This document shows, piece after piece, positions 26,835 through 55,775 of a stretch of DNA of 64,000 bases; position 1 is the first letter of the stretch; each line of letters opens with the position of its first letter. The stretch comes from an uncultured Acidobacteriaceae bacterium. GTDB lineage: Bacteria > Acidobacteriota > Terriglobia > Terriglobales > Acidobacteriaceae. The notes below the pieces were generated by a model. It was not told the DNA's origin and did not search any database. It saw nothing but the letters and a program-made list of their open reading frames with translations. The stretch is taken from the NCBI GenBank assembly GCA_963816335.1, contig CAWFKA010000009.1, positions 360,392-424,391 on the forward strand, read 5' to 3'. Both the position numbers and the translations under genes were made by a program.

Positions 26835-26852
26835 TCTGGCGAACGCCGCGTT

Positions 26853-36210: not shown

Positions 36211-36223
36211 TTGACTCGCTCAT

Positions 36224-36268: not shown

Positions 36269-36349
36269 CCGCTTCAGAAGCTAGTCATGCTCATTTTCCA
36301 GAAGCAGGAAATTCCCCAACGCCTCCGCTGACCAATTCAACAGTTATGA

Positions 36350-39723: not shown

Positions 39724-40025
39724 GAATTCCCACTACTGCGACGATAGCCTGAAGACAACTGAGAACAACGTCTGTTGACAAGTGCTAACAAATGTTATCC
39801 CTTCGAGTCCAGCAACGGTGGGGCAGGGACGTATATTTTTTCGCTATTGTTGACAACAGTCGAACCGACACATAGGCTCCTGCCGATTTTAAAACCAATG
39901 CAAGCGAAAACCCTCCAAACGCCCGTCTTCATTGGCTGAAACCTTTCTAATCGAAGCCAGAATGATGTCATGGTTGCGGTCAAACCCTATTTCTGTTGAT
40001 GTTTAACTCTGAGATCAGATCGATC

Positions 40026-40625
40026 GTAAGCGTACGCAGATCCCCTCTTGACGATAGGTGGAGTGTGTCATGAGGTGCCCACTTCTTTTTTTAGTGGGCA
40101 CCTCATGAGTGTGTCTAAGCAGCTTGAGAGGAGTGGGTTTTGAGTGAGGTGACGAGGTTCCACGGCAGGAGGTCGTCGATTCGGCTGACGGGAAAGCGTG
40201 CGAAGTTCTGATTTCGTATTCTCGTTGCCGCGCGAACAGGAACGCGAATCGCGCTTGATCGGAGAGTTCTTCTGTCATTTTGGCAGTCGCCACCGAAATA
40301 AACTTGCGGTAATGTTTTGGAATGACAGGCAATTTACAACTCAATTCAGCCCAACTGTTTGCCAAGTGGTTGTTAGAGGACTCTGGAACGCTCACGCCAG
40401 ACTTTTCGGTTTTACGTATCCACCGCGCGGAACCGCGTTTTCAGACGAAAAATTATTTTGCACGATTCAAAGTTGAGATCGCCCATCTCGATGGCAGTGG
40501 TATGAACCCCACGCAAGTTAGCTGCGTCGTCGTGGAGGTATCTGAAACCGATCAGAGCTCGGCGGCTGTCTCCGGAGTTCGCTGCGAGTCTATTAAGAGC
40601 CTCTAAAAATCTCACTATCAAGGCC
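40026..40625 (-). mobile_element. IS66-family transposase C-terminal remnant with terminal repeat end
   Basis: Reverse-strand fragments ANSGDSRRALIGFRYL..., CKLPVIPKHYRKF and FPVSRIDDLLPWNL* (IS66 C-terminal signature) lie in three frames. The element end GTAAGCG sits at 40026-40032. Confidence 0.55.
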
Positions 40626-41285
40626 TACACCCAGGTTTTTCCTCGATTTATTAAGTAACGATTCCAGATTCGAAACTTTTGCCGCTTGTGGTGTAAAAAG
40701 CCTGAACGCTTCTAATCATCAATTCTTACAATGCCTAAATGCGCCGAAATGCGTGTAAAACCGGCCAATCAAGGGTGGAAGATGCGGGTGGAGGTTGTCG
40801 CCCAAGATTCGTTTCCGCTCAAAAGAATGACCTGACTCGTGTAAACGAGCCTAACAAATGACTATCGGGCTTTGTAAGCGCGCTCCTTCGTCATGTAATC
40901 CGCGGTGGGCCCAGGCATCTCTCTCCGTTGGAGTAGGGTTAGAGTCTGGGCCCTTTTCCATTACCGTTCATTGATCATCAACAAAGACTAGAGAGTCGCG
41001 GACGCCGATGCGCAGGCATAAAGCCGAGGATGGCTTACTTTTTTACGAGCAAGCGGGATGGCTCCACAACCAACACGTCATCCGGATGACCGCGATCTTT
41101 CGCACAGAATCTCGCCGAGTTTTAGTCCACGATCGATGCCGATTTCGAAGAGATTGGAAGCAAAACGCAGAGGATGGCGCGGAGGAGGAAAACTAAGAAA
41201 AGCGGGTTGACTCACATGACGACGAAGAATAATTCGAAATCGCTGTTCCCTTCATCCAATTGACCGGCCACCTTTCCCGTCTCAT

Positions 41286-42245
41286 TCATGGCGCAGGCGG
41301 GCCCGTAGGCTCCCCCGCCCCCAGGCTGTACACGACATGCACCTGGGTATGGACGTCCACCGGTTGGCCACTCACCAGGAACGGCTTGTACTTCCAGCTT
41401 CCAACGGCATCCATCGCCGACTTTTGCAGCAGGGGCGGACCGCTGACTAAAATCATATCCTCGATTTCGCCGGTCTTCGAGATCGTGACGTTGAGCACTA
41501 CCGTTCCGGAGATGTGCGCGGCCTTTGCGACTGCCGGATAAACAGGGTCCGTCTTAACCAATCGATTCGCCTCTGCGACGCCGGAAGAGAGCATAAGGTT
41601 CTGAACACCCGCCATTTTTCCTAATCCCGTTGCTCCCGTTGAATGAGCCGTATGGGTCATCATCGCCAGTGAGTAGCCCTCCTCGACGGTACATTCTGAA
41701 TGGGCATGAACGGGTTTACCCATGAAGTCAAGAGGTGGACCAGCGTATGGAACGGCGCTGGGAACTAATCTTTTTGTCGAGGCCATTTGAGAAGCTTCCA
41801 ACTTTTTCGCAGCCTCCGACCAATCCGGGATAAGGGCCGCACTGTCTCGACTCGGCAATAAGCAGAAGGTGACTTGGAGTGCTTTGATTGCTTCAGGCGT
41901 GAGAACGCAGGACGCTGTACACGACGGAGCTGTGCCGCACTCGGCCTCGAGATTAGTGCTCTTGCAAAGCTGGTACTTCTCGTAGTTTTCGACACAGGCC
42001 TTTGCGGGCTCAACACAAGAGGCTGCGAGCTTACGATTCATTTCGCCATACAGTCCCATTGCTTCTGGAGGATCTTTTACGGTCGGCTGCACTCTCCTCA
42101 TCGGACCGAAGTAAGTCGCACTACCACCGATTGCATAATGCAAAAGACAAGCCGTCCAGACATCGGGCGGCTTTGTAGTATGTTGCCGATGGCTTTTGCT
42201 ATCGCTACTTGCGATACAGACTGGTTCCTGTGACTCCAATCGCAA
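41286..42245 (-). CDS. TonB C-terminal domain protein with Cys-rich N-terminal region
   Basis: The C-terminal 80 aa (PVYPAVAKAAHISGTVVLNVTISKTGEIEDMILVSGPPLLQKSAMDAVGSWKYKPF) match the TonB_C fold pattern. No TM or Pro-rich spacer was recognised, and the start is uncertain. Confidence 0.55.
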   Translation of the reverse strand: MRLESQEPVCIASSDSKSHRQHTTKPPDVWTACLLHYAIGGSATYFGPMRRVQPTVKDPPEAMGLYGEMNRKLAASCVEPAKACVENYEKYQLCKSTNLEAECGTAPSCTASCVLTPEAIKALQVTFCLLPSRDSAALIPDWSEAAKKLEASQMASTKRLVPSAVPYAGPPLDFMGKPVHAHSECTVEEGYSLAMMTHTAHSTGATGLGKMAGVQNLMLSSGVAEANRLVKTDPVYPAVAKAAHISGTVVLNVTISKTGEIEDMILVSGPPLLQKSAMDAVGSWKYKPFLVSGQPVDVHTQVHVVYSLGAGEPTGPPAP

Positions 42246-42356
42246 CGCCTGCCGACGATTACTTTTATTAAAGCGAACTCCAAGGCCAAGGACTCAGTTC
42301 TCAGTCAGGTGTCCGGGATTCTCACCGTTACATTCACAACCGTAGTTCGTGGGGGC

Positions 42357-42743
42357 TCATAATCCCAAGGACTTCACTTGCTCCTCGGTTTCGTAGCCGA
42401 GCCAGTGTGCAACTTCGTGCCAGACCACGCGTTTCACTTCGGCATGCAAATCTCCTTTTGAACACCGCAGAATGGGGTCACGAAAAACAAATATCAAGTC
42501 GGGGGCATACTGCACTTGAGTGAATGACCGCTTGGTCCTAAATGTGCCGCTGTACAATCCCAATAACTCAGTTCCATCACGCCATTTCTCTCTGCTCGAT
42601 ATGTCCTCCAATACGTCCGCAGGAGGCTCGTCAACCACTTGGATGCCTGGGAAATCTGGCAGGTCCCTGATCTTCTGGGGCAGCGTGCTGTATGCCCACT
42701 CTACAATCTCCTCAAAGCTCTTGGGATTTGCGGCGTCGGCCAT
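42357..42743 (-). CDS. small zinc metallopeptidase family protein (DUF1025/zincin-like)
   Basis: 128 aa with the C-terminal HEVAHWLG HExxH motif, and size and layout typical of this family. Confidence 0.75.
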   Translation of the reverse strand: MADAANPKSFEEIVEWAYSTLPQKIRDLPDFPGIQVVDEPPADVLEDISSREKWRDGTELLGLYSGTFRTKRSFTQVQYAPDLIFVFRDPILRCSKGDLHAEVKRVVWHEVAHWLGYETEEQVKSLGL

Positions 42744-42990
42744 GACGCCAACTTTACTACCAGAATCACTCGCAAGGGGTTTGACCGATGTGTGAAATCA
42801 TGGGTGGAGATTGCGGGGTGGAGCGCTTCCGTTGCCCTTGTAAGTGTCTGAAATTAAACATATTACGAAGATGAGTTTCATCGAAGAGCTCAGCAACTTC
42901 AGTGCTGGCCTCGTAGTAAGCAAGAAAGACCGTTTTCCAGTGAAAGAGATACGTTCAAATGGGCGAGGACCTATTGCTTGGGGCTAAATT

Positions 42991-43130
42991 TCGGTACTAT
43001 AGCGGCACACGCGTCAGCTTCTCCACTTTTGCAGGGATTACGGCAAATTACTTCAAATTAGGCACTTAGAGCGTTTCATAATTACGCTGAATTTCTCTCT
43101 ATTTTCCTAAACATACAGCGATCTTCGGAA
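42991..43130 (+). repeat. conserved att-arm block (type 1, tRNA-proximal arm)
   Basis: TCGGTACTATAGCGGCACAC... starts exactly 140 nt upstream of the tRNA fragment and is homologous to 25259-25398. Confidence 0.7.
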
Positions 43131-43184
43131 ACTCAAAATCCGCCGAGGGCAACCTCATGGGGTTCGACCCCCGTCCCGGCACCA
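43131..43184 (+). repeat. partial tRNA-Leu copy (anticodon loop to CCA), att core
   Basis: ACTCAAAATCCGCCGAGGGCAACCTCATGGGGTTCGACCCCCGTCCCGGCACCA matches the resident gene except for two 1-nt deletions. Confidence 0.85.
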
Positions 43185-43224
43185 ATTAAATCATAGAGTT
43201 AAGTTGATACCAACTACCCGATGC

Positions 43225-43256
43225 CCCTTCGCTGTGCCCAAACCGTGCCCGAACGG
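43225..43256 (+). repeat. att-arm motif type 2 (GTGCCC direct repeats)
   Basis: CCCTTCGCTGTGCCCAAACCGTGCCCGAACGG. Its 12-mer CTGTGCCCAAAC recurs at 55487-55498. Confidence 0.5.
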
Positions 43257-43855
43257 CTAAAGATTCGATCTAATCAATTCTAGGTTCAGAGCTGCTAAGG
43301 ATCTTTCCGAACAGAATCTTCAATTATTGGAACGGAATTCTATTACTAGTTCGCGTGCAACTTCGAGAGCAGTCGGAGAGCCGATGTCTTCCTCTGCGCC
43401 CAGGGACAGCGAGGCGGAACATAAGCTGGTGGCGAACTTCGCCCGTGCTCCTCGATTGGCCATCAAGGCGAGGGTCTCGTGAATCTGCTAGCCGCAGTGC
43501 TTTCTAAGCGGAGCGTGCGAACGGCCCAGGCTTCTTCGCAAGCACCTGGGGCTCTCCAGCAGCGATCGATGCAATGGGCAGTTCTTCATTTGCAGCAACA
43601 CCAAAAGTGGCCCCTCAATCGGGATGGTGCATTTCGAGCCACACAGCGATCGCGACGCCCAAAATTATTGCGCAGGCTACTATGATGATAGCCGCAACAA
43701 GCTCGCGCGGCTTCCAACGTATTGCTCGCACTCTCCGCTTACTACCACGTCCTAAGATAATTTGGCGAGACATGCGCTATCCCCTAAGAGGGCGACTTGG
43801 AGCCACTTCGAGATTGCGGCTCCAAGGCCAATCGTTGGTTTGAGGGAACGTCCCG

Positions 43856-46567
43856 CTAAAAGTGAAAACCAATCTCGCCCGTCAGGGCCCGCGGCGTAAC
43901 GTAGTGTGTGCCGCTGAAGGTCGAGAGAAAGTTGTAAAGTGCGTACTTGTTTGTCACATTGATGGCCGTGACACGCGCGCTCCACCTGAACCGGTCGCCA
44001 CGGAATAGGTTGTCGTCGCCCAGCGTCATATCGAAAAGGCTACGTGGTGCGATGCGCGGCGGATTGTGGTCATCGTTCTCAGTGCCGGGCGCGGGTATCT
44101 GGATGAGGTTTGAGCCGTACTGCGATGGAGCGCAAGTAGTCAAAGGATTTGCCAACGTTGCGCGCTGACTGCCACAAAACAGTCCGGCTTGCTGTTGTTG
44201 ATCGGCGGTGAGAACCGTCAGGTCGACTGGCGTCGTCGTATCCGTTGCAAACGGAACCGCACCAGCGACAAGCCCGCTGTCATATCTCCAGTTGAATCCA
44301 AACCATGGCAGGTTTTGGAACGGCTGATATTGCAGATGCGCAGTTGAATTGAATTTCTCATCATGATCGATGCGGAACGGGTAGCCGCCGCTCTCCACGG
44401 TTGTACCCAAGCCGCCAATCTGCGGAGGGAAGAAGCGTGCCGCAACACTGGAAAAGACGAAGAAGCCCGTGAAGCCATGAACAGTAGGGACGCTAACTCT
44501 TCCTGCGTAGCCCGTGATCTTTGAGTTATGCCAGTCGATCGGGAAGGTGATTGGTGTGAGGCCCAGGACGCTGAAATCATAAGAGTCGTGCGTGTATTTC
44601 CAGATGTATTCACCGCTGGCGACGACGTACTTGCCAAATGCCTGCTCGAGCCCGGCGTGGAATTCATTTCGAAAGCCGGGATTGAATGCTGACGGTACGC
44701 AAGGAACCAACGCCGCAATTACCTGATAATCACACCCGGTAGAGGAAAGCACCAGGTTTTCGTTAAACGGCGTCTCTAGTGTTCGTGCGTAAGAAGCTCG
44801 CAGCACCGTGTTTGTCTTTGCGACATTGTATGCAATACCGACACGAGGTTGTGCCGATCTCGCAATTGCAAGCCCGTTGTAGAGATCCCCACGAATTCCT
44901 ACATTGAAACTCCAGTTCTTCAATGTTATCGAGTCCTGCAGGTACAGAGCGAGTTGCTTCACGTCTGTATGTCCAAAGAATGGATAAAGAGTACTGGTGC
45001 CGGCGCAACCGTCCGAACCAGCCGGGATTGGACGAGTGAGGTCGTAACAGCCGAGCAATGGATTGAACGGAGCAGTGGCGTTTGGATTGTCGGCCGTATT
45101 CGGTTGATAGCCAGCGGCGGCGCACTGCGAGGGGTCATTGAAGCCGGCGACCGGTTCGCCATCGCTGTCAATGCAGGGTGAGTTCAGCGAGGGATCAACG
45201 ATTCCAAGGTAGTCGTATTCACGCAAAAATGTCTGCTGGTAGACGGCTCCTAACTTGATGTTGTTTATCCCTTTGACATACGAAAAATCCGAGCGCAGGC
45301 CGGCATTGAGAAGAGTGCGGGCCTGGGAGACTGTTTCCTGCTGTGAGCCTGCTGTGAAGTCGGAAAATACGTCGGAGCTGGGGTAGTAGTTGTACCAATC
45401 CTTTCGGACAAACGCGCCGAAGTTGAATACTTTATCCGAGCCGATGACCCGAGTGTAGGTGGGTGCGACATTGAAAGTAAGAATCGAAGACTTCTGGTCT
45501 GTCGGGCCGACAGGCGCGCCCGTGATGGGGTTGGTTGAGCCGACATTCAGGTTGTCGTATGAGTTAGGCGTTTGGAACCATGAGCGCGTAAACCCAAGAT
45601 TCAAGTGGAGCGCGTCGGCCGGGGTCAGAACGTAGTCCACGCGGTCAAACACGTTCTCTTCGTTCCCTTTGCTATGAAAAACGCTGAACTCCGGCCCGTC
45701 GAGAAAGCGTCCGCTGTTCAGTCCGCTTGCTGCAATGAAATTTCCCCAATTCTGTTTGCCATAGGCAAGATCGAGGCCCAGAGTTGATGAACCAAACGAG
45801 CCATAGGAGGCGGTCACGCTGCCGGTGGGCCGGTCTACTCCTTGTCCGGAGCGCGTCACCACCTTGATGACAACGCTGGTCTTGTCTCCATATTCAGCAG
45901 GCGGAGCACCGGCGATCACCTCGAGGGATTGAATGGATTCCGCCGGAATCTGGTTGGAGAAGACCTTGCTTTGCTGATCTGTAATAGGCTGCCCATCTAC
46001 AGAAAAAGAGTTTTGAGCATGGTCCCCAAGCCCGTGAAAAAGGCCGTTTGAATCCGCCGCAATGCCCGGTGTCGAGAGTGTGACCAGCGAACTGACAGAC
46101 GACGAGGTACTCTCAAGAGGTAACTTGTCGAACAGGCCACGATCAACGTCGGTGTGGAAAGTGGAATCGTTTTCGACTAGATCTTGACCACCCTCCACGG
46201 TAACGGTTGTGGCCGCAGTTGAGATCTGAAGGGGAGTGTTCAGACTAATAGGCACGACTGACCGAACATCCACATCTTTCGCAACCGACCCGAAACCAGA
46301 TGCCGTGATGCTGACGTGATAGGGATTGAACGGTAAGTTGGTGAACTCAAAGTGACCGGTAGCATCGGTTTTAGCTACCCGGCTATATCCGCTGACAGGG
46401 TTTTCGAGAGTAACAGTAGCATTGGGCACAACGGCGCCGGTTGAATCGGTGACGACACCTGAGACTGTTCCCGAATTACCAACGGATTGCGCATCCAGGT
46501 GCGTGATAGCAAATGAAAATAAAAAGGCAAATACAAATACGACACTGCGTCGGATAGACGTGTGCAT
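43856..46567 (-). CDS. TonB-dependent receptor (CarboxypepD_reg N-domain)
   Basis: 903 aa: signal peptide, GTVSGVVTDSTGAVVPNATVTLENPVSGYSRVAKTDATGHFEFTNLPFNPYHV, plug, barrel and a C-terminal GEIGFHF. Confidence 0.9.
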   Translation of the reverse strand: MHTSIRRSVVFVFAFLFSFAITHLDAQSVGNSGTVSGVVTDSTGAVVPNATVTLENPVSGYSRVAKTDATGHFEFTNLPFNPYHVSITASGFGSVAKDVDVRSVVPISLNTPLQISTAATTVTVEGGQDLVENDSTFHTDVDRGLFDKLPLESTSSSVSSLVTLSTPGIAADSNGLFHGLGDHAQNSFSVDGQPITDQQSKVFSNQIPAESIQSLEVIAGAPPAEYGDKTSVVIKVVTRSGQGVDRPTGSVTASYGSFGSSTLGLDLAYGKQNWGNFIAASGLNSGRFLDGPEFSVFHSKGNEENVFDRVDYVLTPADALHLNLGFTRSWFQTPNSYDNLNVGSTNPITGAPVGPTDQKSSILTFNVAPTYTRVIGSDKVFNFGAFVRKDWYNYYPSSDVFSDFTAGSQQETVSQARTLLNAGLRSDFSYVKGINNIKLGAVYQQTFLREYDYLGIVDPSLNSPCIDSDGEPVAGFNDPSQCAAAGYQPNTADNPNATAPFNPLLGCYDLTRPIPAGSDGCAGTSTLYPFFGHTDVKQLALYLQDSITLKNWSFNVGIRGDLYNGLAIARSAQPRVGIAYNVAKTNTVLRASYARTLETPFNENLVLSSTGCDYQVIAALVPCVPSAFNPGFRNEFHAGLEQAFGKYVVASGEYIWKYTHDSYDFSVLGLTPITFPIDWHNSKITGYAGRVSVPTVHGFTGFFVFSSVAARFFPPQIGGLGTTVESGGYPFRIDHDEKFNSTAHLQYQPFQNLPWFGFNWRYDSGLVAGAVPFATDTTTPVDLTVLTADQQQQAGLFCGSQRATLANPLTTCAPSQYGSNLIQIPAPGTENDDHNPPRIAPRSLFDMTLGDDNLFRGDRFRWSARVTAINVTNKYALYNFLSTFSGTHYVTPRALTGEIGFHF

Positions 46568-46610
46568 ACGATACCCCCCTCAAATGTTGATCGAATGTTT
46601 CTTCCAGGAT

Positions 46611-46937
46611 TTAGGAGAAAGCAGGCGAGACAGGAGGAGGTCGTGTGTAGAGGGCGAAAACGGAAAGAGTAATCGGGGTGTGCGGACGAAGAAAATCGAC
46701 AATCCGGACTACGTGCCGGACGACGACCGGGACAACCGCAGGTGTTGCAGGCGAGATGACGACGTGGGCGGTTGTGCAAAGAGAGCAATCGGAATGCGAA
46801 ACATTCCCCGACTCGTGGCCGTGCGCCACCTGAATGGTTCCACCAAGAATAACGAGCGCCACGCACAACACGCCGAGCAGCAGACGTAGAGTGCCGTGGG
46901 ATCGCCGGGGGAACGTCAGGCGCAGCATAGCTAACAC
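46611..46937 (-). CDS. small membrane-anchored Cys/His protein (DUF2946-like?)
   Basis: 108 aa with TM LRLLLGVLCVALVILGG, then HGHESGNVSHSDCSLCTTAH, ending ...LYTRPPPVS. It lies immediately upstream of, and co-oriented with, the TBDR. Confidence 0.5.
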   Translation of the reverse strand: MLAMLRLTFPRRSHGTLRLLLGVLCVALVILGGTIQVAHGHESGNVSHSDCSLCTTAHVVISPATPAVVPVVVRHVVRIVDFLRPHTPITLSVFALYTRPPPVSPAFS

Positions 46938-47037
46938 TATAGCGCAGTCAGCGCCGAGTTTGTAAAGAGCACCAAGAGGTCTTGACTTCGTCAGAATTCA
47001 CTCGATCAAGATCTCTGGTGCAATGCGAGAACACGAA

Positions 47038-47064
47038 GCTGCGAGCGGAAAGCCCGCTCGCAGC
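47038..47064 (-). terminator. hairpin GCTGCGAGCGG-AAAGC-CCGCTCGCAGC, candidate terminator
   Basis: 11-bp perfect stem. On the reverse strand it is followed by TTCGTGTTCTC, and it lies downstream of TBDR 47280. Confidence 0.4.
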
Positions 47065-47235
47065 AAGCTTCGCTAGACAATCGAGGCGGACAGAGATGGT
47101 CCGTGGGCCAACAAGAAAGCTCAAGAGGGCAAGCTTTCTATTTCCCCACGTCTTTCGTAGCGTTCGGCAGTTCAACCAGCGCAACGGCCTTTAACTTCCC
47201 CAAGGTGCAGGCAAACCAGAACTCTTAACTGTGAT

Positions 47236-47273
47236 CCATGCTGCGCGGTTGCAGGTTCGTCCGCGCAGCATGG
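47236..47273 (-). terminator. hairpin CCATGCTGCGCGG-N12-CCGCGCAGCATGG directly after the TBDR stop
   Basis: 13-bp perfect stem 7 nt beyond the stop at 47280, with no U-tract. Confidence 0.35.
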
Positions 47274-47279
47274 CTTCGC

Positions 47280-49568
47280 TTAGTACTTGAATCGGTAGCG
47301 GATTTCGCCATAAATCTGCCGAGGATCGTTGTAGTGGAAGCCGCCGAAGGTAAGGCTGTTGTCGAGCAGGACCCGATGATTGGTCACGTTGAGACAAGTT
47401 GCGGAGAGCGATATTCGTTCGCCGAAATCCTTTGCGGCAGAGAGGTCAAAGGTGGTGTGTGAAGGCAGGTAGGCTCCTGGGTAAGGAGACGGCGGATCCT
47501 GTTGTCCGTTGGTGAATCCCGAGCCGTAGTAAACGTTCGTTGATGCGTAAATGTGACTCGGCAGAGTCGCATTAAAACCGACATTCAGGGTGTCGCGCTG
47601 ATCATGGTCCACCGGGGTGTAGTCAAAGCCAGAATCACATGCCGTCGATCCAACAGGAGTGCAGATGAGTCCGCCGGTAATGTTCCCGCGTTGTTGTGCA
47701 ATCTGGTTGGAATAGGCAAGATGAGCCTGCCCTAAGCGCCAGATGCGTGGCGAACGAAGGGTCAACTCCCAGGCCTGGATGAGTGCCCCATCCACCGTGA
47801 CGGGGTAATAGATGCTTGAATTGCCGATATTGGAGTGGTCGAGGAAGTTGTTCACCCTATTCTGGAAATGATCTGCGTCGAGAAGCCATCCCTTGTACGG
47901 AATCTGCACGCCGAACTGATACTCCTCATCGCGCTCTCCATAGAGTGGAACAAAGGCTGTGTTATTGGCGTTCGCATAGTCGACCACCGGCCCTGACGCT
48001 GTCAGCAACGGGGGCGGCTGATAGTACTTCCCCCAGAATCCACGAAACACCCAGTGGAGCTTCGGTAGCTCGAAGGCAATCCCAAAACGGGGATCGATTT
48101 GGTGTTCCGTGATGTCGGAAACGAAATTCGACTGACGAAGGCCGGCTATGAGTGTGAGCCAGGGAGTTGCCTTGTAGTTGTCAGAGATGTATTCCTCGAT
48201 GAGGCCGCCGCTGGCTGAGTCTGTAGTGCTGAAGTTCTCAAAGCTGCCGTCGTTGAAGATGGAGCCGAACAGATAGCTGTCGTGTTGACCCCAGCTATAG
48301 ATGCCGGCTTGAATTGTGTTCCGAGCGATATTGGTGTTAATTCCAGCTTGCAGTCCGCCGTAGTTGGTCGTCCGATCCGCGGTCGTGGCGACGGGGTAGT
48401 CATTCGGGTTAGCCGAGTAGTTGGCGCTGTTGTAGTGGTAGAACGGGGAGACCTCAAGCATGGTTGCTGCGTTGAAAGTATGTGCCCACGTTACGGCGGT
48501 CATTCCATCCGTCTCATGTTGTCCGTCTCGCAGTCCCTGGGAGGGATAGAACTGGTTCTGGTAGCTGTTGGGGTCTGGATCATAGGGAATCTGAAAGTAG
48601 TCCGCACGCAGCTGGCCGACAACACGGAGCTGGTCCTGTGGAGTACGGTTATAAATCAGCGAAGTGAAACCGCCATAGCCGTTGGCAGCATCGTGATAGA
48701 CCTCGCTGATGGGCGGCGATAGCCCGTAGTCGGTACGATTACCGTTGAGGCTGGCGTAGTAAGCGAACTTCTGTGTGTGGCCACCGAAGCTCAGTTGGTC
48801 GTTGGTCTGCCAGTAGTTGCCGAGGCTTACGATCAGTTCGCCTTCATGGTCGCGTTCAAATCCGTTGCGCGGCGCAACATTGAAGACACCGTAGGTCCGA
48901 TCTCCCACATCGGCGGCATAACTACCCCGCTGTATTTCCAGATAATTGATATCTTTTGGGTCGATCTGAGGGCCAATGTTGCTGGCGATATTTGTGTTCG
49001 GAATTTCGACCCCGTCGATCAGCCAGCTCACTTGATGACCACCGCGAATGTGGAGCATGTCGTGGGTCATGTAGGCACCTGGAACATAGTCGGTAATCAT
49101 CTCCATTCCGTAACTGCGGCTCGCCCCCGGAGTCTGCGTGATGTCTACGTGGTTCACGGTAGTTGTCGGAGTGGCGGTGTCTACATTTGTGACGTTTGCT
49201 TCCGCCTCTGCCGAGACGGACTGCTGCACGGTCGCGATCGGTAACTCAAAGTGCAAAATGGGCGAAGTCCCCGAGGCAAGCATCACGAGTTGTGTCTGTG
49301 AGGCAAAGCCAGGCTGAGAGACCGTTAGTTTGTACTCGCCAAAAGAGACGATCTGAAAGCGGAAGGCTCCGTCGCGATCAGTCTCAAGAGTTTTTACCAA
49401 ACTGGAATTGACGCTCGCTAAGACGACCTTGGCGCCGGAGATTGGGCGGTGCTGCGGATCATGAACAATTCCCTGCACCTGCCCATAGACCGTAGCGTGG
49501 GCACGATGCGCCGAAATTATGAGGACGAATAGAAAAAAGACCGGGAGAAGCAATGCGAACTTGCGCAT
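47280..49568 (-). CDS. TonB-dependent receptor (CarboxypepD_reg N-domain)
   Basis: The start is taken at ATG 49568 (MRKFALLLPVFFLFVLIISAHRAHA). It has GIVHDPQHRPISGAKVVLASVNS...DGAFRFQIVSFGEYKL, a plug, a barrel and a C-terminal EIRYRFKY. The 5' extension in the track ORF is Arg/Pro-rich and not protein-like. Confidence 0.9.
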   Translation of the reverse strand: MRKFALLLPVFFLFVLIISAHRAHATVYGQVQGIVHDPQHRPISGAKVVLASVNSSLVKTLETDRDGAFRFQIVSFGEYKLTVSQPGFASQTQLVMLASGTSPILHFELPIATVQQSVSAEAEANVTNVDTATPTTTVNHVDITQTPGASRSYGMEMITDYVPGAYMTHDMLHIRGGHQVSWLIDGVEIPNTNIASNIGPQIDPKDINYLEIQRGSYAADVGDRTYGVFNVAPRNGFERDHEGELIVSLGNYWQTNDQLSFGGHTQKFAYYASLNGNRTDYGLSPPISEVYHDAANGYGGFTSLIYNRTPQDQLRVVGQLRADYFQIPYDPDPNSYQNQFYPSQGLRDGQHETDGMTAVTWAHTFNAATMLEVSPFYHYNSANYSANPNDYPVATTADRTTNYGGLQAGINTNIARNTIQAGIYSWGQHDSYLFGSIFNDGSFENFSTTDSASGGLIEEYISDNYKATPWLTLIAGLRQSNFVSDITEHQIDPRFGIAFELPKLHWVFRGFWGKYYQPPPLLTASGPVVDYANANNTAFVPLYGERDEEYQFGVQIPYKGWLLDADHFQNRVNNFLDHSNIGNSSIYYPVTVDGALIQAWELTLRSPRIWRLGQAHLAYSNQIAQQRGNITGGLICTPVGSTACDSGFDYTPVDHDQRDTLNVGFNATLPSHIYASTNVYYGSGFTNGQQDPPSPYPGAYLPSHTTFDLSAAKDFGERISLSATCLNVTNHRVLLDNSLTFGGFHYNDPRQIYGEIRYRFKY

Positions 49569-49668
49569 GGACAAATCGACCTCCGCACCACGGGTGTGGC
49601 GAGCGTAGCAATGAATGAGATTGCAAGAGCGAGCCCGAACCGAGCTTTGACGAGGCGTGGTAGGAAAG

Positions 49669-50055
49669 CTAGAGGAGGAGGCTGGGAGGGCCGCGCTTCT
49701 GGCGGCTGCGATCGAGGGAGAGGCGATAGAGGGCTTCAGTCTGCGCGTGAATCGCGGGGTGACTGGCGATCTGGGCGTAATGGGTGGCAGAGGCCGCGGG
49801 CGCACCGTGGAACGGGAATGACGATGCAGTGACTGCGCGTGGGTAGAAGGCGCAGCGTTGCGGTGTCTGGCGCGCCTGGGTTCCAAGGCCCGCTGAGCGC
49901 AGGGCCCGATCCGTCATGGTGCAATGATGGTTACCATCGCGGCGGCAGCACGCCGGGAGACTTGCTTCGGGGTCGGAAGAAGAAAGCGCGAGGAGCGGCG
50001 CGGCCATGAACGAGCCGATCAGAGTGAGCATCAAAATGGCCGTAAATCGCCGCAT
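49669..50055 (-). CDS. small secreted Cys/His protein (paralogous in layout to 46611-46937)
   Basis: 128 aa from ATG 50055 with signal peptide MRRFTAILMLTLIGSFMAAPLLALS, then ACCRRDGNHHC, ending ...LYRLSLDRSRQKRGPPSLLL. It lies upstream of, and co-oriented with, TBDR 47280-49568. Confidence 0.5.
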   Translation of the reverse strand: MRRFTAILMLTLIGSFMAAPLLALSSSDPEASLPACCRRDGNHHCTMTDRALRSAGLGTQARQTPQRCAFYPRAVTASSFPFHGAPAASATHYAQIASHPAIHAQTEALYRLSLDRSRQKRGPPSLLL

Positions 50056-50766
50056 GGAGAACGTAGTGTAAGCGAGATCACACGCAAGACGCAATTTGCG
50101 AGCCTGCCTGGAGTGAGGGTTGGCGCGCCATTGCGAACGAACCACCGCGGCAAAAGGACATCGCAGTTCCCGTCAAAGCGCACCTTGCTTGTCCGAATTA
50201 CGCATTATGCGACGAGGGGCTGTCACGATTCCGCAGTGATTCAGACGTTCGACATTCCGCAAGGCTGGGTTGCGCCCGGGCAATTGCATCACCGAGGCAA
50301 CTCTCTGCGCAAGTAAGCAGCAAATCAAATGCGTCCGTTATCCTGGACGACGGGTCAGCGGAAATAGGGCCTACACCAACCCTAGCCGCAGGAGAAGGTT
50401 ACTGGGCCTGGTTGGTCACGGAGGGCACTCGAAGTGCTGATCGTAAAGATGGGTAGCATGAATTTGGAAAAGATGTTACTCTAACGTTTCCCCGGCAGGA
50501 TGTCTCTTTTCGACTGGAATTTGCATGCAGCAAGTGGGAAAACTTCGCGTTGCGTCAGTGGGTTGCCTCCTAAACGGCTGACCGAATGGCCCTACCCAGA
50601 GATTCTCTTTGAGTTCGGTGGAATCCTGCTTTGCAACTCCCTCCCTTGCCCAATCGGCCCGGCTCCTGTCGAGTGACTGGATCCAAACTCCTGTTTGTTG
50701 TTGTTGACCGAGCGGACACGTTATACCCCAGAACATTCATTTGAAGACTCGGAGGCAGGGAGATTC

Positions 50767-53250
50767 ATGAGGGCCGGTAACACGATTTATAGATTGTTCA
50801 TACCGCTCTTATTGCTATTCGTTCTTTGGGAGCCTCGTCTCGCAATAGCTCAGGCCATCTCTGGTCCAAAAAAGATGAAGGCTACTTTACTCATGGTTGC
50901 TGCGCAGGAGAGGGCGCCGGTCGCCACCAGTGACAAAGCTTATACGCCTCAGGTGACGGGGACAGTCGTTGACACGTCTGGCGCAACGATTGCCGGGGCT
51001 ACCGTAGAGGTTCGGAGCGCGGACAGCGCCGTCCAAAAACTGACGCAGTCAGACAACACCGGCTCCTTCAGTATTTCTGGACTCTCGACAGGTGATTATC
51101 GAATTATCGTATCGAGTCCCGGTTTTGCAACCAAAGAGATGCCTTTCGCGATCGGGATCTCCGCGGAACCGGGGCCGTTGCGCATTTCCCTGGCGGTGAA
51201 CGCCGTGAGCACCACGGTGGAGGTGCAGGGCCGGGAGGATAGCCTGATAGGAATCGCCGAATCCGCGACGCAGGGGACGGTGGGCGCAAAGCAACTCGAG
51301 GATCGTCCGCTGCTTCGTTCGGGGGAGATTCTGGAGGCAGTTCCCGGTCTGATCATCACGCAACACGCGGGGGGCGGTAAGGCCAACCAGTATTACGTTC
51401 GCGGGTTTAATCTCGACCACGGCACAGACTTCGCCATCTTCATCGACGGTATGCCTCTCAACCTGCCTTCGCACGCGCACGGCGAGGGGTATTCGGACAT
51501 GAATATTGTGGTGCCGGAGTTTGTGCAGCGGTTGAATTTCGAGAAGGGTCCTTACTACGCGGATATCGGCAACTACGGCTCAGTTGGATCGGCGAACGTG
51601 CAGTATTTCAAGACGCTGCCGCAGAACTTCGTCCAGGCGGAAGTGGGCATGTACGACTATGCGCGGGCCGTTTTCGGAGTTGCGCAAACGCTCGGCCCGG
51701 GTACTCTGCTGTACGGCGGAGAAGCGTATTACGATGACGGCCCATGGACGCATCCGGATGCGTATAAGAAGTTCAACGGGCTTGTAACGTACAGCCAGGG
51801 CGGCAGCACGAATGGCTTCAGCATGACGGCTCGCGGGTACCACGGGAAATGGAATTCGAGCGACCAGATTGCCGAGAACGCAGTGCCCCTCGTTGGTGTC
51901 TTCGGCACACTGAACACGACGGACGGTGGCAATTCACAGCGTTATAGCCTGCAGGGTGAATGGCATCGCCAAGGCGCGGATTCGGCGACGACGATGCTGG
52001 GCTATGGATTCTATTACGATCTCGATTTATTCTCAGATTTCACTTACTACCTGACGGACATCAATCGCGGCGACCAGTTTGAGCAGCAGGATAAGCGCTG
52101 GGTGGCGGGACTGGCTGCAGCGCACACAATTTTCAGCCGATGGTTTGGACACAGGGTGGAGAATACGTTCGGCGTGCAGGTTCGCAACGATTGGATCCAC
52201 AACGGCCTTTTCCAGACGGAAGATCGCGTACGCGTGGACAAAACTGATTCGGACACTGGTAACACTCTACCCGCGACTACACAGGAGGATCGGTTTACTG
52301 ACACGCAAGTTGGTCTCTATGCGCAAAACACAATCCAGTGGGCGGAGAAATTCCGCTCAGTTTTGGGGCTGCGCGGCGACCTGCAGTATTTTGATGTAAC
52401 CAGCCTGGTGGAGTCGGCCAATTCCGGCACGGCGAGCAAGTTTCTGCCCAGCCCGAAATTAAATCTGATTTTCGGTCCGTGGTTCAATACGGAGTTCTAT
52501 GCACAGGGCGGATTCAGTTTTCACAGCAACGACGGGCGGGGCACAACGCAGACGATCGAACCGATCTCGGGAGAGAACCCTTATCCCGGTACGCCGGCCA
52601 CGCCGATTCCTGCCCTGATACCAACCAAAGGCGCGGAGGTCGGCGTCCGCACACTGGCTGTACCACACCTGCAGAGCACACTCTCGCTCTGGCATCTACA
52701 CAGTGCTTCCGAGCTGCAGCAGTCCGGCGATACCGGCGGCACGACTGCTTCGAAACAGCCGAGTAACCGCTATGGCGTCGAGTGGGCGAACTATTACACG
52801 CCACGAGAACATCTGGCTTTTGATTTTGACTTCGCGGATTCCAAGGCGCTTTTTACAACAATCGACGAAGACGATGCTGCGCCGGACAGCCCGGGCGGCA
52901 GGTATGTTCCGGAGGCGGTTGAGCTGGTGATTTCGGCGGGCGTGACGGTGCAGCAGTACAAAAACTTTTGGGGGAGTTTGCATCTGCGCGCCTTTGGCCC
53001 GCGCAATTTGACGTCCGACGCAATCTACCGCTCAAGCTCAACACTCTTGCTCAACGCGGAAGTTGGCTATCACTTCAATGAGAAATGGCGCGTTTCGGCT
53101 CAATTTCTCAATTTGCTTGACCGCAGCGATCACGACATTGACTACGCGTATGAGTCCCGGGTATCGCCAACGGCCGAGGCAGAGTTCACCAACGTCTTCC
53201 ATCCGGTCGAACCCTTCCAGGTACGATTTCTGCTGGAAAGAACTTTTTGA
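50767..53250 (+). CDS. TonB-dependent receptor (CarboxypepD_reg N-domain), candidate nickel/cobalt receptor
   Basis: ATG at 50767 after GGAGGCAGGGAG, with a signal peptide. GTVVDTSGATIAGATVEVRS..NTGSFSISGLSTGDYRI, a plug (NQYYVRGFNLDHGTDF) and a barrel ending FLLERTF. It is convergent with the nikR / His-rich pair. Confidence 0.85.
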   Translation: MRAGNTIYRLFIPLLLLFVLWEPRLAIAQAISGPKKMKATLLMVAAQERAPVATSDKAYTPQVTGTVVDTSGATIAGATVEVRSADSAVQKLTQSDNTGSFSISGLSTGDYRIIVSSPGFATKEMPFAIGISAEPGPLRISLAVNAVSTTVEVQGREDSLIGIAESATQGTVGAKQLEDRPLLRSGEILEAVPGLIITQHAGGGKANQYYVRGFNLDHGTDFAIFIDGMPLNLPSHAHGEGYSDMNIVVPEFVQRLNFEKGPYYADIGNYGSVGSANVQYFKTLPQNFVQAEVGMYDYARAVFGVAQTLGPGTLLYGGEAYYDDGPWTHPDAYKKFNGLVTYSQGGSTNGFSMTARGYHGKWNSSDQIAENAVPLVGVFGTLNTTDGGNSQRYSLQGEWHRQGADSATTMLGYGFYYDLDLFSDFTYYLTDINRGDQFEQQDKRWVAGLAAAHTIFSRWFGHRVENTFGVQVRNDWIHNGLFQTEDRVRVDKTDSDTGNTLPATTQEDRFTDTQVGLYAQNTIQWAEKFRSVLGLRGDLQYFDVTSLVESANSGTASKFLPSPKLNLIFGPWFNTEFYAQGGFSFHSNDGRGTTQTIEPISGENPYPGTPATPIPALIPTKGAEVGVRTLAVPHLQSTLSLWHLHSASELQQSGDTGGTTASKQPSNRYGVEWANYYTPREHLAFDFDFADSKALFTTIDEDDAAPDSPGGRYVPEAVELVISAGVTVQQYKNFWGSLHLRAFGPRNLTSDAIYRSSSTLLLNAEVGYHFNEKWRVSAQFLNLLDRSDHDIDYAYESRVSPTAEAEFTNVFHPVEPFQVRFLLERTF

Positions 53251-53339
53251 CAAATCCGGCGGTTGTCATCCTGCTTATAGAAACTAGCAGGTCTACCCCC
53301 AATATCTATTTCGGTTCCGCTCCTTGTGGGCTCTTAACA

Positions 53340-53534
53340 CTATTCATGAGTATGCTCGTGGTAGTGATCATGGGAATGCGAGTGCGTAACCTCGTCGTGC
53401 GTATGCTCACGCGTGTGCTTTGTGCCAGCAGCCGGTGGGTTGGGATGAGAATGATCGTGGTGCTCGTCGTCATGAGAATGTTCGTGAGTTTGTGTCAATG
53501 TAACGTGGTCGTGACTGTGAGAATGCTCAGTCAT
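53340..53534 (-). CDS. histidine-rich small metal-binding protein (Hpn-like composition)
   Basis: 64 aa, about one third His arranged as HxH/HxxH runs (MTEHSHSHDH...HSHSHDHYHEHTHE). AGGAGG precedes the ATG. It lies 200 nt downstream of nikR on the same strand. Confidence 0.7.
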   Translation of the reverse strand: MTEHSHSHDHVTLTQTHEHSHDDEHHDHSHPNPPAAGTKHTREHTHDEVTHSHSHDHYHEHTHE

Positions 53535-53733
53535 AAATGCCTCCTTGGGACATTCCCAAACATTATGACGGAGGATTGTGCGATTGCCTGATTCAGCAGG
53601 CTGACGGTGACCTGGCGTCGGAAGGGGGGTTAAAGCTAGATAGCAGTATCCCGGCCCATCTGGATAGAGGCAACGTGACTTTCTTTCAGTGGCCGCGGTT
53701 CGCCGGGCACAATGCTTCGGAAACTTGGACGGT

Positions 53734-54168
53734 CTAGTGCGAGTGTATGGAGCTCTTGAGATTCTTGCCGGATTTTGTCAGGACGAGTTTTCCGAGTTCT
53801 ACGCCACGCAAAGCGAGCATGCCGTCGGCAACGGCCTGGATGTCTCTTCCTCTGCCTTTCATGATAATGACTTCCAGGCAATAGTTGTGATCTAGATGGA
53901 CATGCGTGGCCGCGAGAACCATCGTGCCCGCAACGTGTTGGACCTCTGTCAGCTTTTGCGCAAGATTCGGAACGTGATGGTCGTAGACCAGCGTCAAAGT
54001 GCCAACCACTGGCTCATTCGATGCAACAGTCTCCGACAGAAGCGCCTCTCGTATAAGATCGCGAAACGCCTCCGAGCGGTTCGCGTAACCGCGCTTGGCA
54101 ATGAGCCGATCGAATTCCTTCAAAAGATCATCTTCGAGCGAAACGCCTGTTCTGCTCAAATGTGACAT
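53734..54168 (-). CDS. nikR: nickel-responsive regulator NikR
   Basis: 144 aa from ATG 54168 after GGAGAA. It has a ribbon-helix-helix N-terminus (RTGVSLEDDLLKEFDRLIAKRGYANRSEAFRDLIR) and an ACT-like C-domain with the His cluster (VYDHH...ATHVHLDH..CLEV). Confidence 0.9.
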   Translation of the reverse strand: MSHLSRTGVSLEDDLLKEFDRLIAKRGYANRSEAFRDLIREALLSETVASNEPVVGTLTLVYDHHVPNLAQKLTEVQHVAGTMVLAATHVHLDHNYCLEVIIMKGRGRDIQAVADGMLALRGVELGKLVLTKSGKNLKSSIHSH

Positions 54169-54302
54169 CTCGTTTTCTCCATCCCGATTGTAATGGGGTA
54201 CAGATGACTTGTGAGTACTCATTGCGTCCGTCGCTCTCGCCGGCCGACTATGCGCAATCTGCTGGAGCAATCGCTCGTAAGGAAATGTCGATGGGCGGGC
54301 TG

Positions 54303-55552
54303 TAAAGGTTTGTCCCTATCAAACCCAAGGAATGCCGTAAAAGAGTTTGGGGTAGCTTCGTAGCTGGCGCGTGGAGAGCAACGGGATCCGGAGAGCGACG
54401 GCTCTACGTATTAGACGAATCGTCGCTGGCATCAACCCGGCAGGTGCATGACTTTTTGAATCGTCTCCATCCGAATGACCGCGTGCTTTTGGTCGGCGAC
54501 CGTCGGCAACATGAAGCGGTCGAGGCCGGGCGGCCGTTCGCGCAACTCCAGGACGCAGGCATGAAGACTGTGAAGCTCCAAGAGATCGTGCGCCAGAAAG
54601 ATCCTGAGCTGAAGTGGGTAGTCGAGCAGCTCGCTCGAGGCGAAGTGCGCGAAGCCATCCAGAATCTTCAACGGCAGGGTCGGGTCCATGAGGTCCCGGT
54701 CAACGATGAACGACTTACTGCCATCGCAAGGAGTATGCCAGAGCCCCGGAGAAAACATTGGTGGTTTCCCCTGACAACCGCTCCCGCATGGAGTTCAATG
54801 CGCGCATCCACGCCGAATTGCAATCACTTGGCGTTGTCAGCAATGAGGAGCATCGCATTCGAACGCTTGTTCCGCGTCAGGATCTTACAGGGGCAGACGG
54901 CACTTGGGCCGGGCGGTACGAAGTGGGCGACGTATTGCGCCACTCGCGAACATCGCGGGAGACGGGCATCACTAAGGGGAAATACGCACAGGTGAATAGC
55001 ATCGACGCTTCGAACAACCGGCTGACAATCGAGTTACGAGACCGCGGAGTGCACCTATGATCCACGGCGGCAGCAAGGAGTCACCGCACCAGCCCACGAA
55101 TTGAAAGTTGCGAACCGTGAGTTGGGAGCCATCGAGCACATCGGCCAGGACGGAACGTTGTGCCTGAAGATGGGCGCAAAGTTGAACTCGATCCGCAAAG
55201 GCAGCTGCATCTCGATTACGGCTATGCCATGACAAGCCATTCCAGCCAGGGCCAGACCGCCGATCGTGTCCTGATACACGTGGACACTGAATTGGGCGCT
55301 AAGGAACTGATCAACAGCCGCATGGCCTATGTAGCGATCTCACGGGGCGCATATGATGCGCAGATTTATACATCTAACGCATCCACATTGGGGAAGGAAC
55401 TCACCCGAGATGTACGCCATCCCTCTGCACTTCAACCAGAATCGGTGACGCAAAAGAACGAGCCTAAGCCCGCGCATACTCTGGAACTGTGCCCAAACGA
55501 ACGAAATTACCCCTCCCGGAACCATCCGGAGCCGCAATGTGAAGTCCGTTAA
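54303..55552 (+). pseudogene. conjugative relaxase (MobF/TraA-type) RecD-like helicase domain, 5'-truncated and frameshifted
   Basis: LYVLDESSLAS...RVLLVGDRRQHEAVEAGRPF...EIVRQKD, then VVSPDNRSRMEFNARIH, then LDYGYAMTSHSSQGQTADRVLIHVD...MAYVAISRGAYDAQIYT. These lie in at least 4 frames, and no relaxase (HUH) domain or Walker A is present. Confidence 0.75.
55487..55498 (+). repeat. att-arm motif type 2 copy (CTGTGCCCAAAC)
   Basis: Identical 12-mer to 43232-43243, about 100 nt upstream of the third tRNA fragment. Confidence 0.45.
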
Positions 55553-55600
55553 GTCGTTGTAAGCGCGGCATCTTCAGTACTTGGCTGAGCCCCGTCAAGG

Positions 55601-55656
55601 ACTCAAAATCCGTCGGAGGCAACTCCATGGGGGTTCAACTCCCCCTCCCGGCACCA
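55601..55656 (+). repeat. partial tRNA-Leu copy (anticodon loop to CCA), att core
   Basis: ACTCAAAATCCGTCGGAGGCAACTCCATGGGGGTTCAACTCCCCCTCCCGGCACCA. The upstream sequence cannot form the acceptor or D arms. Confidence 0.85.
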
Positions 55657-55725: not shown

Positions 55726-55775
55726 TTTTCGCCTTAAATTTGGATTTCAGTACAGTTCCGGTACAGTTCGGCTTA
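55726..55775 (+). repeat. diverged copy of the type-1 tRNA-distal arm block
   Basis: TTTTCGCCTTAAATTTGGATTTCAGTACAGTTCCGGTACAGTTCGG starts 70-71 nt after the CCA and aligns with 11700 and 25527. Confidence 0.55.

Follow-up and report, generated by a model that had tools for sequence, protein, structure and literature searches.

Cis-mobilizable elements (CIMEs) are elements that have lost their integration and transfer genes and have kept both attachment (att) sites, attL and attR; by definition they can still be excised or transferred by a functional element with the same att site, or jointly with it (PMC5704250). CIMEs and their tandem accretion were described for ICESt1 and its relatives in Streptococcus thermophilus (Pavlovic et al. 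2004; Bellanger et al. 2011; reviewed in PMC5704250). We analysed a 64,000-nt stretch of the genome of an uncultured Acidobacteriaceae bacterium (contig CAWFKA010000009.1), called the window throughout, and in particular the interval E3 (43185-55656), which lies between f2 and f3, two 3' fragments of a tRNA-Leu(CAA) gene. Like the streptococcal CIMEs, E3 stands in a head-to-tail array at the 3' end of one tRNA gene, and the array would be explained, as in streptococci, by integration, decay and the next integration. Unlike them, it was found in a host of the Acidobacteriaceae and not in a Firmicute, its parent would be an integrative and mobilizable element (IME) with a MobF relaxase, no unit visible in the window keeps an integrase, and two arm/integrase types (CGGTAC and GTGCCCAAAC) occur on the same tRNA-Leu core. 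We consider it highly probable that E3 began as an IME, which a tyrosine integrase recombined into the 3' end of tRNA-Leu(CAA), and that it has since decayed to a remnant.

The sole tRNA gene of the window, tRNA-Leu(CAA), was located at 11541-11627, and its 3' part, from the anticodon loop to the CCA, was repeated three times in direct orientation, with ends at 25454 (f1), 43184 (f2) and 55656 (f3). Three such direct repeats are the signature of serial site-specific integrations into one tRNA gene, and they delimit the units E1 to E4. The fragment f2 aligned with other tRNA-Leu att copies, and with f2 and f3 E3 has the att flanks expected from integration into a tRNA 3' end. Tandem left arms of the CGGTAC type were found at 11720/11731 (after the tRNA gene), 25547/25558 (after f1) and 55759 (after f3), and right arms of this type at 25260/25271 (before f1) and 42992 (before f2). 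No tandem pair of CGGTAC was present within E3, where the four hexamers (44693, 48731, 52587 and 54914) were all single. This agrees with an earlier note on this DNA, which had proposed that E3 lacks the CGGTAC arms and has an arm motif of its own just inside both ends.

Exact copies of that motif, CTGTGCCCAAAC, were indeed located at 43232 and 55487, the left one being followed by CGTGCCCGAAC. A 12-mer was shared between two random 200-nt segments of the window in 0.3% of trials, and ten exact 12-mer pairs occurred within E3; the pair at its ends was therefore merely suggestive when taken alone, and the comparison across genomes was decisive. The tandem GTGCCCRAACNGTGCCCRAAC was scanned across 185,579 representative genomes (one per species), which gave 71 matches, about 35 of them in Acidobacteriota. 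Loci fetched from other genomes and metagenomes for comparison are given as L-numbers (e.g. L142, L181). At least 13 loci had the start of the tandem about 49 nt beyond the tRNA-Leu 3' end GGTTCGAYYCCCCCTCCCGGCACCA, which is the geometry of a left arm (they include L161, L170, L171, L173, L174, L193, L204, L211, L215, L217 and L222), and it stood 154 nt before the start of the tRNA-Leu 25-mer in at least 6 loci, the geometry of a right arm (including L157, L160, L183, L189, L199 and L205). The arm form found at both geometries, in more than 20 other Acidobacteriota loci, was the tandem CTGTGCCCAAACTGTGCCCAAAC. The offsets in E3 were 47 nt after f2 on the left and 143 nt before the 25-mer of f3 on the right, that is, 154 nt minus one 11-nt unit. 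The end regions of E3 aligned over their full length with this family (67% and 64% identity to the consensus for the left and right end, respectively), and the right spacer aligned along its whole length with those of L157, L183, L189, L199, L205, L179 and L212. Because the tandem recurs at fixed distances from tRNA-Leu and the spacers are homologous, we identify the 12-mer as an arm-type (P/P') site that belongs to one particular integrase lineage, and both ends of E3 as authentic.

The cognate integrase has about 407 aa, starts with MRGDGxIY and carries a tyrosine-recombinase C-terminus; in L181, L207 and L184 its gene, on the opposite strand, lies just inward of the left arm. Elements with the GTGCCCAAAC right arm at tRNA-Leu (L189 and L199) also carried a relaxase of the family described below, 5-6 kb upstream of the arm, and integrase-less islands whose cargo starts right after this left arm were common (L161, L174, L190, L204, L215 and L217). 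The 12-mer was absent from 80 relaxase-bearing IME loci, since these use other integrase/arm types. In L181 and L207 (arm at 2184 and 2061, respectively) the same GTGCCC(G/A)AAC arm pair follows a different tRNA-like 3' end (…TCGAATCTCTCAGGGCGCACCA) and is accompanied by an integrase that is intact, an Xis-like HTH protein and more genes on the minus strand; from this placement, the arm/integrase type is not confined to tRNA-Leu or to TrwC IMEs. The spacer between right arm and attR (55505-55560 in E3, and the right ends of L157, L183, L189, L199 and L205) held a second doublet, GAACCGCA...GAACCGCA, which may be a site for an excisionase or a host factor. A buried att copy was suspected in an att-like stretch of 28 nt at 55505-55532 and rejected, as the stretch belongs to the conserved P' spacer.

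The right end of E3 carried a 5'-truncated and multiply frameshifted relaxase-helicase gene of the MobF type, as had been noted earlier. A tblastn search with a relative of 920 aa recovered residues 524-913 at 54387-55492, split over two frames that contain stops, with a gap of 18 residues, and weaker homology in a further frame started near 54295, at about residue 490, just past the Walker A motif. At least three frameshifts, in-frame stops and an internal deletion of 18 codons were counted, and the homology ended about 7-10 codons short of the stop codon of the family, exactly at the right arm. The conceptual translation was 72-77% identical in amino acids to its relatives. Profile searches assigned the stub to the second half of AAA_30 (profile positions 105-189) and to UvrD_C_2, and its best NCBIfam matches were the helicase regions of TraI and Ti-type TraA, with scores far below the equivalog cutoffs (111 bits against 930, and 103 against 590, respectively). 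The nearest database proteins, 72-76% identical, are called as 'AAA family ATPases' or 'exonuclease V alpha subunit' of 390-680 aa that have no relaxase domain. A stand-alone helicase of 590-620 aa lacking the relaxase domain was considered as the parent and rejected, as L142 and L084, the two loci with listed open reading frames (ORFs), proved to hold full ORFs of 920-925 aa. In the L142 protein an N-terminal TrwC domain (PF08751, E=1e-82) stands ahead of AAA_30 and UvrD_C_2, and in 74 of the 80 loci the match started within the first 30 residues of this protein. We take the short database entries to be cut-off gene calls or shortened copies, and the stub to be the dead 3' fragment of a genuine TrwC/MobF relaxase and not a functional member of the family. 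Its relatives resemble TrwC of R388, TraA of Ti and TraI of F in the order of an N-terminal TrwC domain (PF08751), an AAA_30 SF1B helicase and UvrD_C_2; unlike these proteins, the copy in the window lacks the whole TrwC domain and the Walker A motif.

Intact-looking helicase-only forms of 591-596 aa without TrwC were also observed, in L001-L003 (tRNA-Ser at 9835-9924, ORF at 10001-11776) and in L004 (1867-3657); they begin 77 nt after the tRNA-Ser gene or after a response-regulator gene. The 591-aa copies near tRNA-Ser (L001-L003) were themselves N-truncated. The helicase-only forms suggest recurrent 5' truncation or a retained helicase-only version.

We found at least 490 confirmed matches to the relaxase family in representative genomes, with up to four per genome and often at contig ends. 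The family is thus very abundant in metagenome-assembled genomes (MAGs) of Acidobacteriaceae, and its loci include L075-L154 and L226-L302. Where the flank was long enough, most loci had a tRNA gene (Lys, Asn, Asp, Phe, Ser, Met or Leu) about 4.9 kb upstream of the relaxase, and in eight loci the tRNA 3' end was repeated 9-16 kb downstream (mostly 13-16). The order of the element was attL, a two-unit arm, a tyrosine integrase on the opposite strand, p389, p280, a NikA-like protein, p139, TrwC, variable cargo, a two-unit arm and attR, and the backbone p389-p280-NikA-like-p139-TrwC was kept in about 70 of the 80 loci. The same two-unit arm architecture was found with other repeat sequences in the relaxase-bearing IMEs at tRNA-Lys and tRNA-Asn, namely GTGTGCCGTAA at tRNA-Lys(ctt), TTGGAACCGTT at tRNA-Asn and CGGGCACCC at tRNA-Lys(ttt). 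The backbone is thus constant and the integrase, the arm repeat and the tRNA target are exchanged between members. No type IV secretion system (T4SS) or coupling-protein domains were detected among the ten ORFs scanned in the intact 13-kb L142, as one bounded element, and none in E3. As the L142 ORFs hold no T4SS genes, the family consists of IMEs and an origin of E3 from an integrative and conjugative element (ICE) is unlikely; of the earlier proposal of a former ICE or mobilizable element, the mobilizable part stands and the ICE part does not, the intact relatives being IMEs of 13-16 kb. The intact relatives of E3 resemble canonical IMEs in having a relaxase, an integrase next to attL, a NikA-like protein, variable cargo and insertion at a tRNA 3' end, and in the absence of mating-pore genes from the L142 ORFs (PMC5704250). 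No description of this MobF-IME family was found in the literature searched, and its anatomy, with two-unit arm repeats that differ by att type, can be reused.

Unlike canonical IMEs, E3 itself has no integrase and its relaxase is dead. No integrase was detected in E3 or in the rest of the window, either by Pfam searches of all large ORFs or by tblastn with four integrases (from L181, L207, L184 and L142 int367; E up to 10), and tblastn of the window with the other backbone proteins, including the NikA-like one, found nothing beyond the relaxase stub; no oriT was located. E3 is therefore not a functional IME; its integration and transfer genes are gone and attL and attR are kept, which in gene content is the state of a CIME. 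We describe it as a CIME-like shell; it is one unit of E1-E2-E3-E4, a tandem accretion array without an integrase in any of its units within the window. The description of E3 as a self-contained island does not hold, since no integrase is left and the cargo replaces the IME backbone. Two junctions were recognised, J1 between 54197, where DNA homology to nikR loci ends, and about 54295, where relaxase homology starts, and J2 at about 55478, where the right arm follows directly on a relaxase that lacks its last codons. The stub is thus fused to the upstream region of nikR on one side and to the right arm on the other, and three intact outer-membrane uptake modules of separate origins lie in the 10.4 kb from left arm to stub: s108-TBDR1, sCH2-TBDR2, and TBDR3 with nikR and the His-rich gene as a convergent pair. 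Cargo in the position of the backbone together with a relaxase 3' end at the right arm implies at least two deletion or fusion junctions after integration. The layout would have arisen after integration, through at least two deletions or because a cargo-only island was joined to a neighbouring IME with the same att type. The positions of all features are listed in Table 1.

Table 1. Features of E3 and its borders, in window coordinates (TBDR, TonB-dependent receptor).
Feature	Position	Strand	Description
f2	43131..43184	+	54-nt tRNA-Leu(CAA) 3' fragment with two 1-nt deletions; attL core of E3 and attR of E2
Left (P) arm-type site	43232..43254	+	Tandem CTGTGCCCAAAC + CGTGCCCGAAC, 47 nt after the CCA end of f2; unit 2 with two substitutions
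Non-coding stretch	43255..43855	.	About 600 nt; integrase position in intact family members; no integrase remnant detectable
TBDR1	43856..46567	-	CarboxypepD_reg + Plug, 903 aa, intact
s108	46611..46937	-	Small membrane-anchored Cys/His protein, H..C.LC motif; operon with TBDR1
TBDR2	47280..49568	-	CarboxypepD_reg + Plug + beta-barrel, 762 aa from MRKF start, intact
sCH2	49669..50055	-	128-aa secreted protein, ACCRRDGNHHC and C-terminal RGPP motifs; operon with TBDR2
Candidate NikR operator	50453..50479	+	GTAGCAT-N13-ATGTTAC, 2 mismatches; divergent sCH2/TBDR3 intergenic region
TBDR3	50767..53250	+	CarboxypepD_reg + Plug + beta-barrel, 827 aa from MRAG start; NikR-associated
Weaker candidate NikR operator	50777..50803	+	3 mismatches; overlaps TBDR3 start; orthologues with sites at equivalent offset
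His-rich protein	53340..53534	-	64 aa, 21 His; downstream of nikR, same strand
NikR	53734..54168	-	Ribbon-helix-helix + NikR_C, 144 aa; HVHLDHNYC nickel-site motif (H-x-H-x5-C)
TrwC/MobF relaxase-helicase pseudogene	54295..55480	+	3' part, residues about 490/524-913 of 920-925
Right (P') arm region	55487..55600	+	One CTGTGCCCAAAC unit left, another of 11 nt lost; then the conserved spacer, about 100 nt, to attR
f3	55601..55656	+	56-nt tRNA-Leu 3' fragment; attR core of E3
Left arm of next element (E4)	55747-55775		CGGTAC type, after f3

All cargo genes were full length relative to their homologues where these exist, as the earlier note had stated: the three TBDRs aligned end to end and NikR scored above its cutoff. 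TBDR1 matched PF07715 only and TBDR2 and TBDR3 matched PF07715 and PF00593, and all three belong to the TonB-dependent receptors. TBDR1 had 583 metagenome relatives, 58-68% identical over residues 1-903; a look-up of the exact protein returned no record, probably because of the choice of start codon. TBDR2 was 87% identical in amino acids to a receptor in L383. The ORFs at 49924-50316(+) and 53247-53591(+) were rejected as antisense artefacts of sCH2 and of the His-rich gene. The latter has an AAGGAGG motif 5 nt upstream, and no homologue of its product was found in the fetched loci.

The cargo is a mosaic, and in other Terriglobia its modules are ordinary genes of the chromosome. The segment 47248-50182 showed 88.9% DNA identity to L383 9865-12817 and the segment 50897-53258 showed 91.7% to L029 10194-12555, both with sharp boundaries and unrelated flanks, while DNA homology to the nikR of L068 stopped at 54197. 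Single TBDR modules thus appear to have been exchanged recently among Terriglobia. The closest sCH2-TBDR2 pairs sit amid unrelated housekeeping-type genes. In the 70 genome loci with a TBDR3 relative the orthologues of TBDR1 and TBDR2 were absent, save for one TBDR2 relative of 52% identity in L014, and in the 80 metagenome loci with a TBDR1 relative only the s108 partner recurred. The idea that the three receptors travel together is contradicted by these loci, where each module stood alone, with no relaxase, integrase homologue, att or arm in the flanking DNA that was fetched. Their acquisition as one module is likewise weakened by the mosaic, and what stands of that proposal is that the block still lies inside an IME shell. 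Relatives of TBDR3 with about 70% amino acid identity were also seen in MAGs of Verrucomicrobiota, Binatia and Desulfobacterota.

Other accounts of E3 have to be weighed against a decayed IME. If the 12-mer were a chance match, E3 would be a spacer between E2 and E4, and a non-conjugative, RecD-like helicase would be the source of the helicase fragment. The ten exact 12-mer pairs within E3, the absence of the 12-mer from the 80 relaxase-bearing IME loci and the top database matches, gene calls that lack a relaxase domain, would fit this account; it does not explain the tandem at fixed distances from the tRNA-Leu att in more than 20 independent genomes, with homologous spacers, or the relaxase matches that begin near the N-terminus of the L142 protein in 74 of the 80 loci, with frames of 920-925 aa in L142 and L084. 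We regard it as refuted by the cross-genome arms and the full-length relaxase and give it hardly any credence. A second account, which we find quite improbable, is that the TBDR/NikR block is native chromosome trapped between att copies, by elements integrating on both sides or by use of a secondary site, so that only the stub and the ends are foreign. Several observations favour such a block and weigh against a cargo brought in by an IME. The GC content of E3 (55.2%) equals that of its surroundings (55.7%), and base composition gave no signal that sets E3 apart. The cargo occupies the position of the IME backbone, from the integrase to the relaxase N-terminus, whereas in intact relatives it lies downstream of the relaxase; given this unusual position, the TBDRs may have arrived by later recombination and not with this IME. 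Elsewhere the TBDR modules are chromosomal, with no mobile-element hallmarks in flanks of up to 10 kb: the 150 loci with TBDR1 or TBDR3 relatives (2.3 Mb) contained no tRNA-Leu att, arm repeat, relaxase or match to the integrases used as queries (L142 int367, and in the TBDR1 loci also L184), and neither the combination of three TBDRs nor a single TBDR1 or TBDR3 module was found inside an IME among them. On the other side, the block is bracketed by matched left and right arms of the same type, correctly oriented and set off from f2 and f3 by the canonical distances, and under sequential tRNA integration everything between two att copies belongs to the inserted element. Integrase-less islands with cargo right after the same left arm are common, and a mosaic whose closest DNA relatives lie in three neighbourhoods is a poor fit to an old syntenic segment of the chromosome.

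The account closest to a decayed single IME is that E3 is the fusion of a cargo-only island, made of the left arm and the TBDR modules, with a canonical IME of the same att/arm type at its right. It differs in route only, and we consider it a realistic possibility though not the favoured one. One deletion would have removed the right end of the island, the att copy common to both and the part of the IME that runs from the integrase to about relaxase residue 490, and another the IME's own cargo. Such a history is in keeping with the frequency of cargo-only islands that have this left arm, with the distance of the relaxase from this right arm in L189 and L199, with two visible junctions (54197-54295 and about 55478) and with the tandem accretion of same-site elements that is evident in the window; it is less easily reconciled with the lack of any trace of an internal att copy or internal arm, and it needs two independent deletions to reach the same outcome as replacement of the backbone inside a single IME. 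These two routes, deletions within one IME and fusion of island and IME, are not distinguished by the present data. By either route, E3 as a decayed IME remnant documents the build-up and decay of an island in Acidobacteriaceae, a dominant but genetically little-studied soil group, where at least four elements of two integrase types have accumulated at one tRNA-Leu gene and none of them now has an integrase in the window. Decay of this kind is already well known and is here extended to a new phylum, and none of the findings overturns a current concept.

We then considered what the cargo might do. NikR of E3 scored 169 bits against NF003381 (cutoff 105), 40 bits against PF01402 and 97 bits against PF08753, which places it in the family by its domains, and in about 45 of the 70 genome loci nikR adjoins the TBDR3 relative. 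A conserved palindrome, GTARCAC-N13-GTGYTAC, was found upstream of, or at the start of, TBDR3 orthologues. The TBDR3 promoter space (75.9 kb, 36 of 66 loci) contained 9 exact sites, 22 with one mismatch and 15 with two, against 0, 1 and 24, respectively, in the remaining 5.66 Mb of fetched DNA. At TBDR3-orthologue promoters the palindrome is enriched more than 1000-fold; loci bearing it include L008, L015, L018, L024, L027, L034, L035, L055, L063, L064, L066 and L068. Given the adjacency of nikR and the geometry of two half-sites, this palindrome is probably the NikR operator of Terriglobia and relatives. In E. coli the NikR operator is GTATGA-N16-TCATAC, from which the candidate differs, and a scan of the E3 promoters for boxes of that pattern and for generic inverted repeats was uninformative. 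Both candidates in E3 lie within 350 nt at the start of TBDR3, and no operator-like sites were found before s108, sCH2 or nikR. Counting against them, the right half of the site at 50777 is poor, and in the whole window 4 matches with up to three mismatches were found where 4.5 were expected from shuffles, so the significance of the window candidates rests on their location only. The consensus, tied to one orthologue group of TBDRs, makes nickel regulation in Terriglobia directly testable. The literature searched gave no account of TBDRs linked to NikR in Acidobacteria.

In Helicobacter pylori NikR represses the nickel TBDRs FrpB4 and FecA3, and the His-rich proteins Hpn and Hpn-2 are present (PMC3856676). 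Like FrpB4 and FecA3, TBDR3 is genetically tied to NikR, with a His-rich protein in the same locus, and a candidate palindromic operator with half-sites about two helical turns apart lies at its promoter. Unlike FrpB4, to which it is likened by gene context alone, TBDR3 has the N-terminal CarboxypepD_reg domain typical of Acidobacteriota receptors, and unlike Hpn the His-rich protein of E3 has no detectable homologue. We infer NikR-mediated, nickel-dependent repression of TBDR3 as the best-supported mechanism. When nickel is plentiful, Ni-NikR would bind the palindromes at the promoter and start of TBDR3 and repress the receptor; when nickel is scarce, TBDR3 would be made and would import nickel or a nickel chelate, presumably with the TonB-ExbBD and an inner-membrane transporter of the host. 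The His-rich protein may, like Hpn, buffer or store nickel. TBDR1 and TBDR2 would work with their small Cys/His partners on some metal or metal complex, outside NikR control. In the island, which the earlier note called 'metal-scavenging', TBDR3 is the one receptor linked to NikR, and for the TBDR1 and TBDR2 modules metal specificity is inference only.

As had also been noted, no TonB, ExbB/D or permease genes were found between f2 and f3. A TonB_C gene lies in E2, just outside E3 (41286-42245), and an Nramp gene elsewhere in the window (62442-63842). TBDR genes are usually unlinked to tonB-exbBD, so this is no special property of E3.

The Cys/His motifs of s108 and sCH2 suggest metal handling. 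Like DUF2946 (PF11162) proteins, both are short, have an N-terminal signal or anchor and His/Cys motifs, and are encoded immediately upstream of a TBDR; unlike them, s108 matched PF11162 below the cutoff (E=0.015) and sCH2 not at all, and the signature ACCRRDGKHHC...RGPP is not in the Pfam description. DUF2946 proteins have been linked to copper uptake. A homologue of s108 was found directly upstream of TBDR1 orthologues in 12 of the 80 metagenome loci. For sCH2 we obtained 202 homologues, all 'hypothetical', and 2 of the 120 listed matched PF11162. Members of the sCH2 family have about 125 aa, a signal peptide, ACCRRxGxHHC and a C-terminal RGPP, and are encoded directly upstream of CarboxypepD_reg TBDRs; they were seen in L014 (8659-9018 and 3539-3880), L025 (11715-12074), L055 (17856-18209), L343, L383 (10001-10387) and the P0122 contig. 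In the last of these, which comes from a close relative (genes at 10001-14444), a gene for a PepSY_TM inner-membrane protein stands next after the sCH2-TBDR2 pair; the pair in E3 lacks it. The two families of small Cys/His proteins that accompany CarboxypepD_reg receptors are a further by-product that can be reused.

A broader reading joins these parts. In it E3 would be a still-mobilizable CIME, excisable alone or with the whole E1-E4 array by a GTGCCCAAAC-type integrase from elsewhere in the genome or from an incoming IME; the MobF-IME family would be a main vehicle that shuffles outer-membrane uptake genes, including a NikR-controlled nickel receptor, among soil Terriglobia; and the ACCRRDGKHHC proteins would form a new class of TBDR partners that handle metal in the periplasm. 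As a whole we consider this reading speculative and rather unlikely.

Finally, we looked at the other units of the array. No empty-site relative at tRNA-Leu was present among the fetched loci, and comparison of the window flanks with these loci gave isolated matches only (a GH9 orthologue in L058 and YceI beside nikR in L024). E1 (11628-25454) and E2 (25455-43184) have CGGTAC two-unit arms at both ends and no integrase, and E4 (55657 onward) shows only its left arm and no integrase within the window. A stretch of E2 (40087-40482, minus strand) weakly resembles a tyrosine integrase, with 25% identity across 134 aa to the L184 protein (its residues 158-275; E=0.05), and may be what is left of an integrase there. 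The cargo of E1 and E2 comprises glycoside hydrolases, an esterase, YceI and an FG-GAP/Big_3_5 protein (33658-36210), the last of which resembles IME cargo of L142 with 37% identity. In L024 a YceI homologue (13202-13780), 76% identical to the E2 gene at 30209-30856, directly adjoins nikR, and in the window YceI and nikR lie in separate units of the array.

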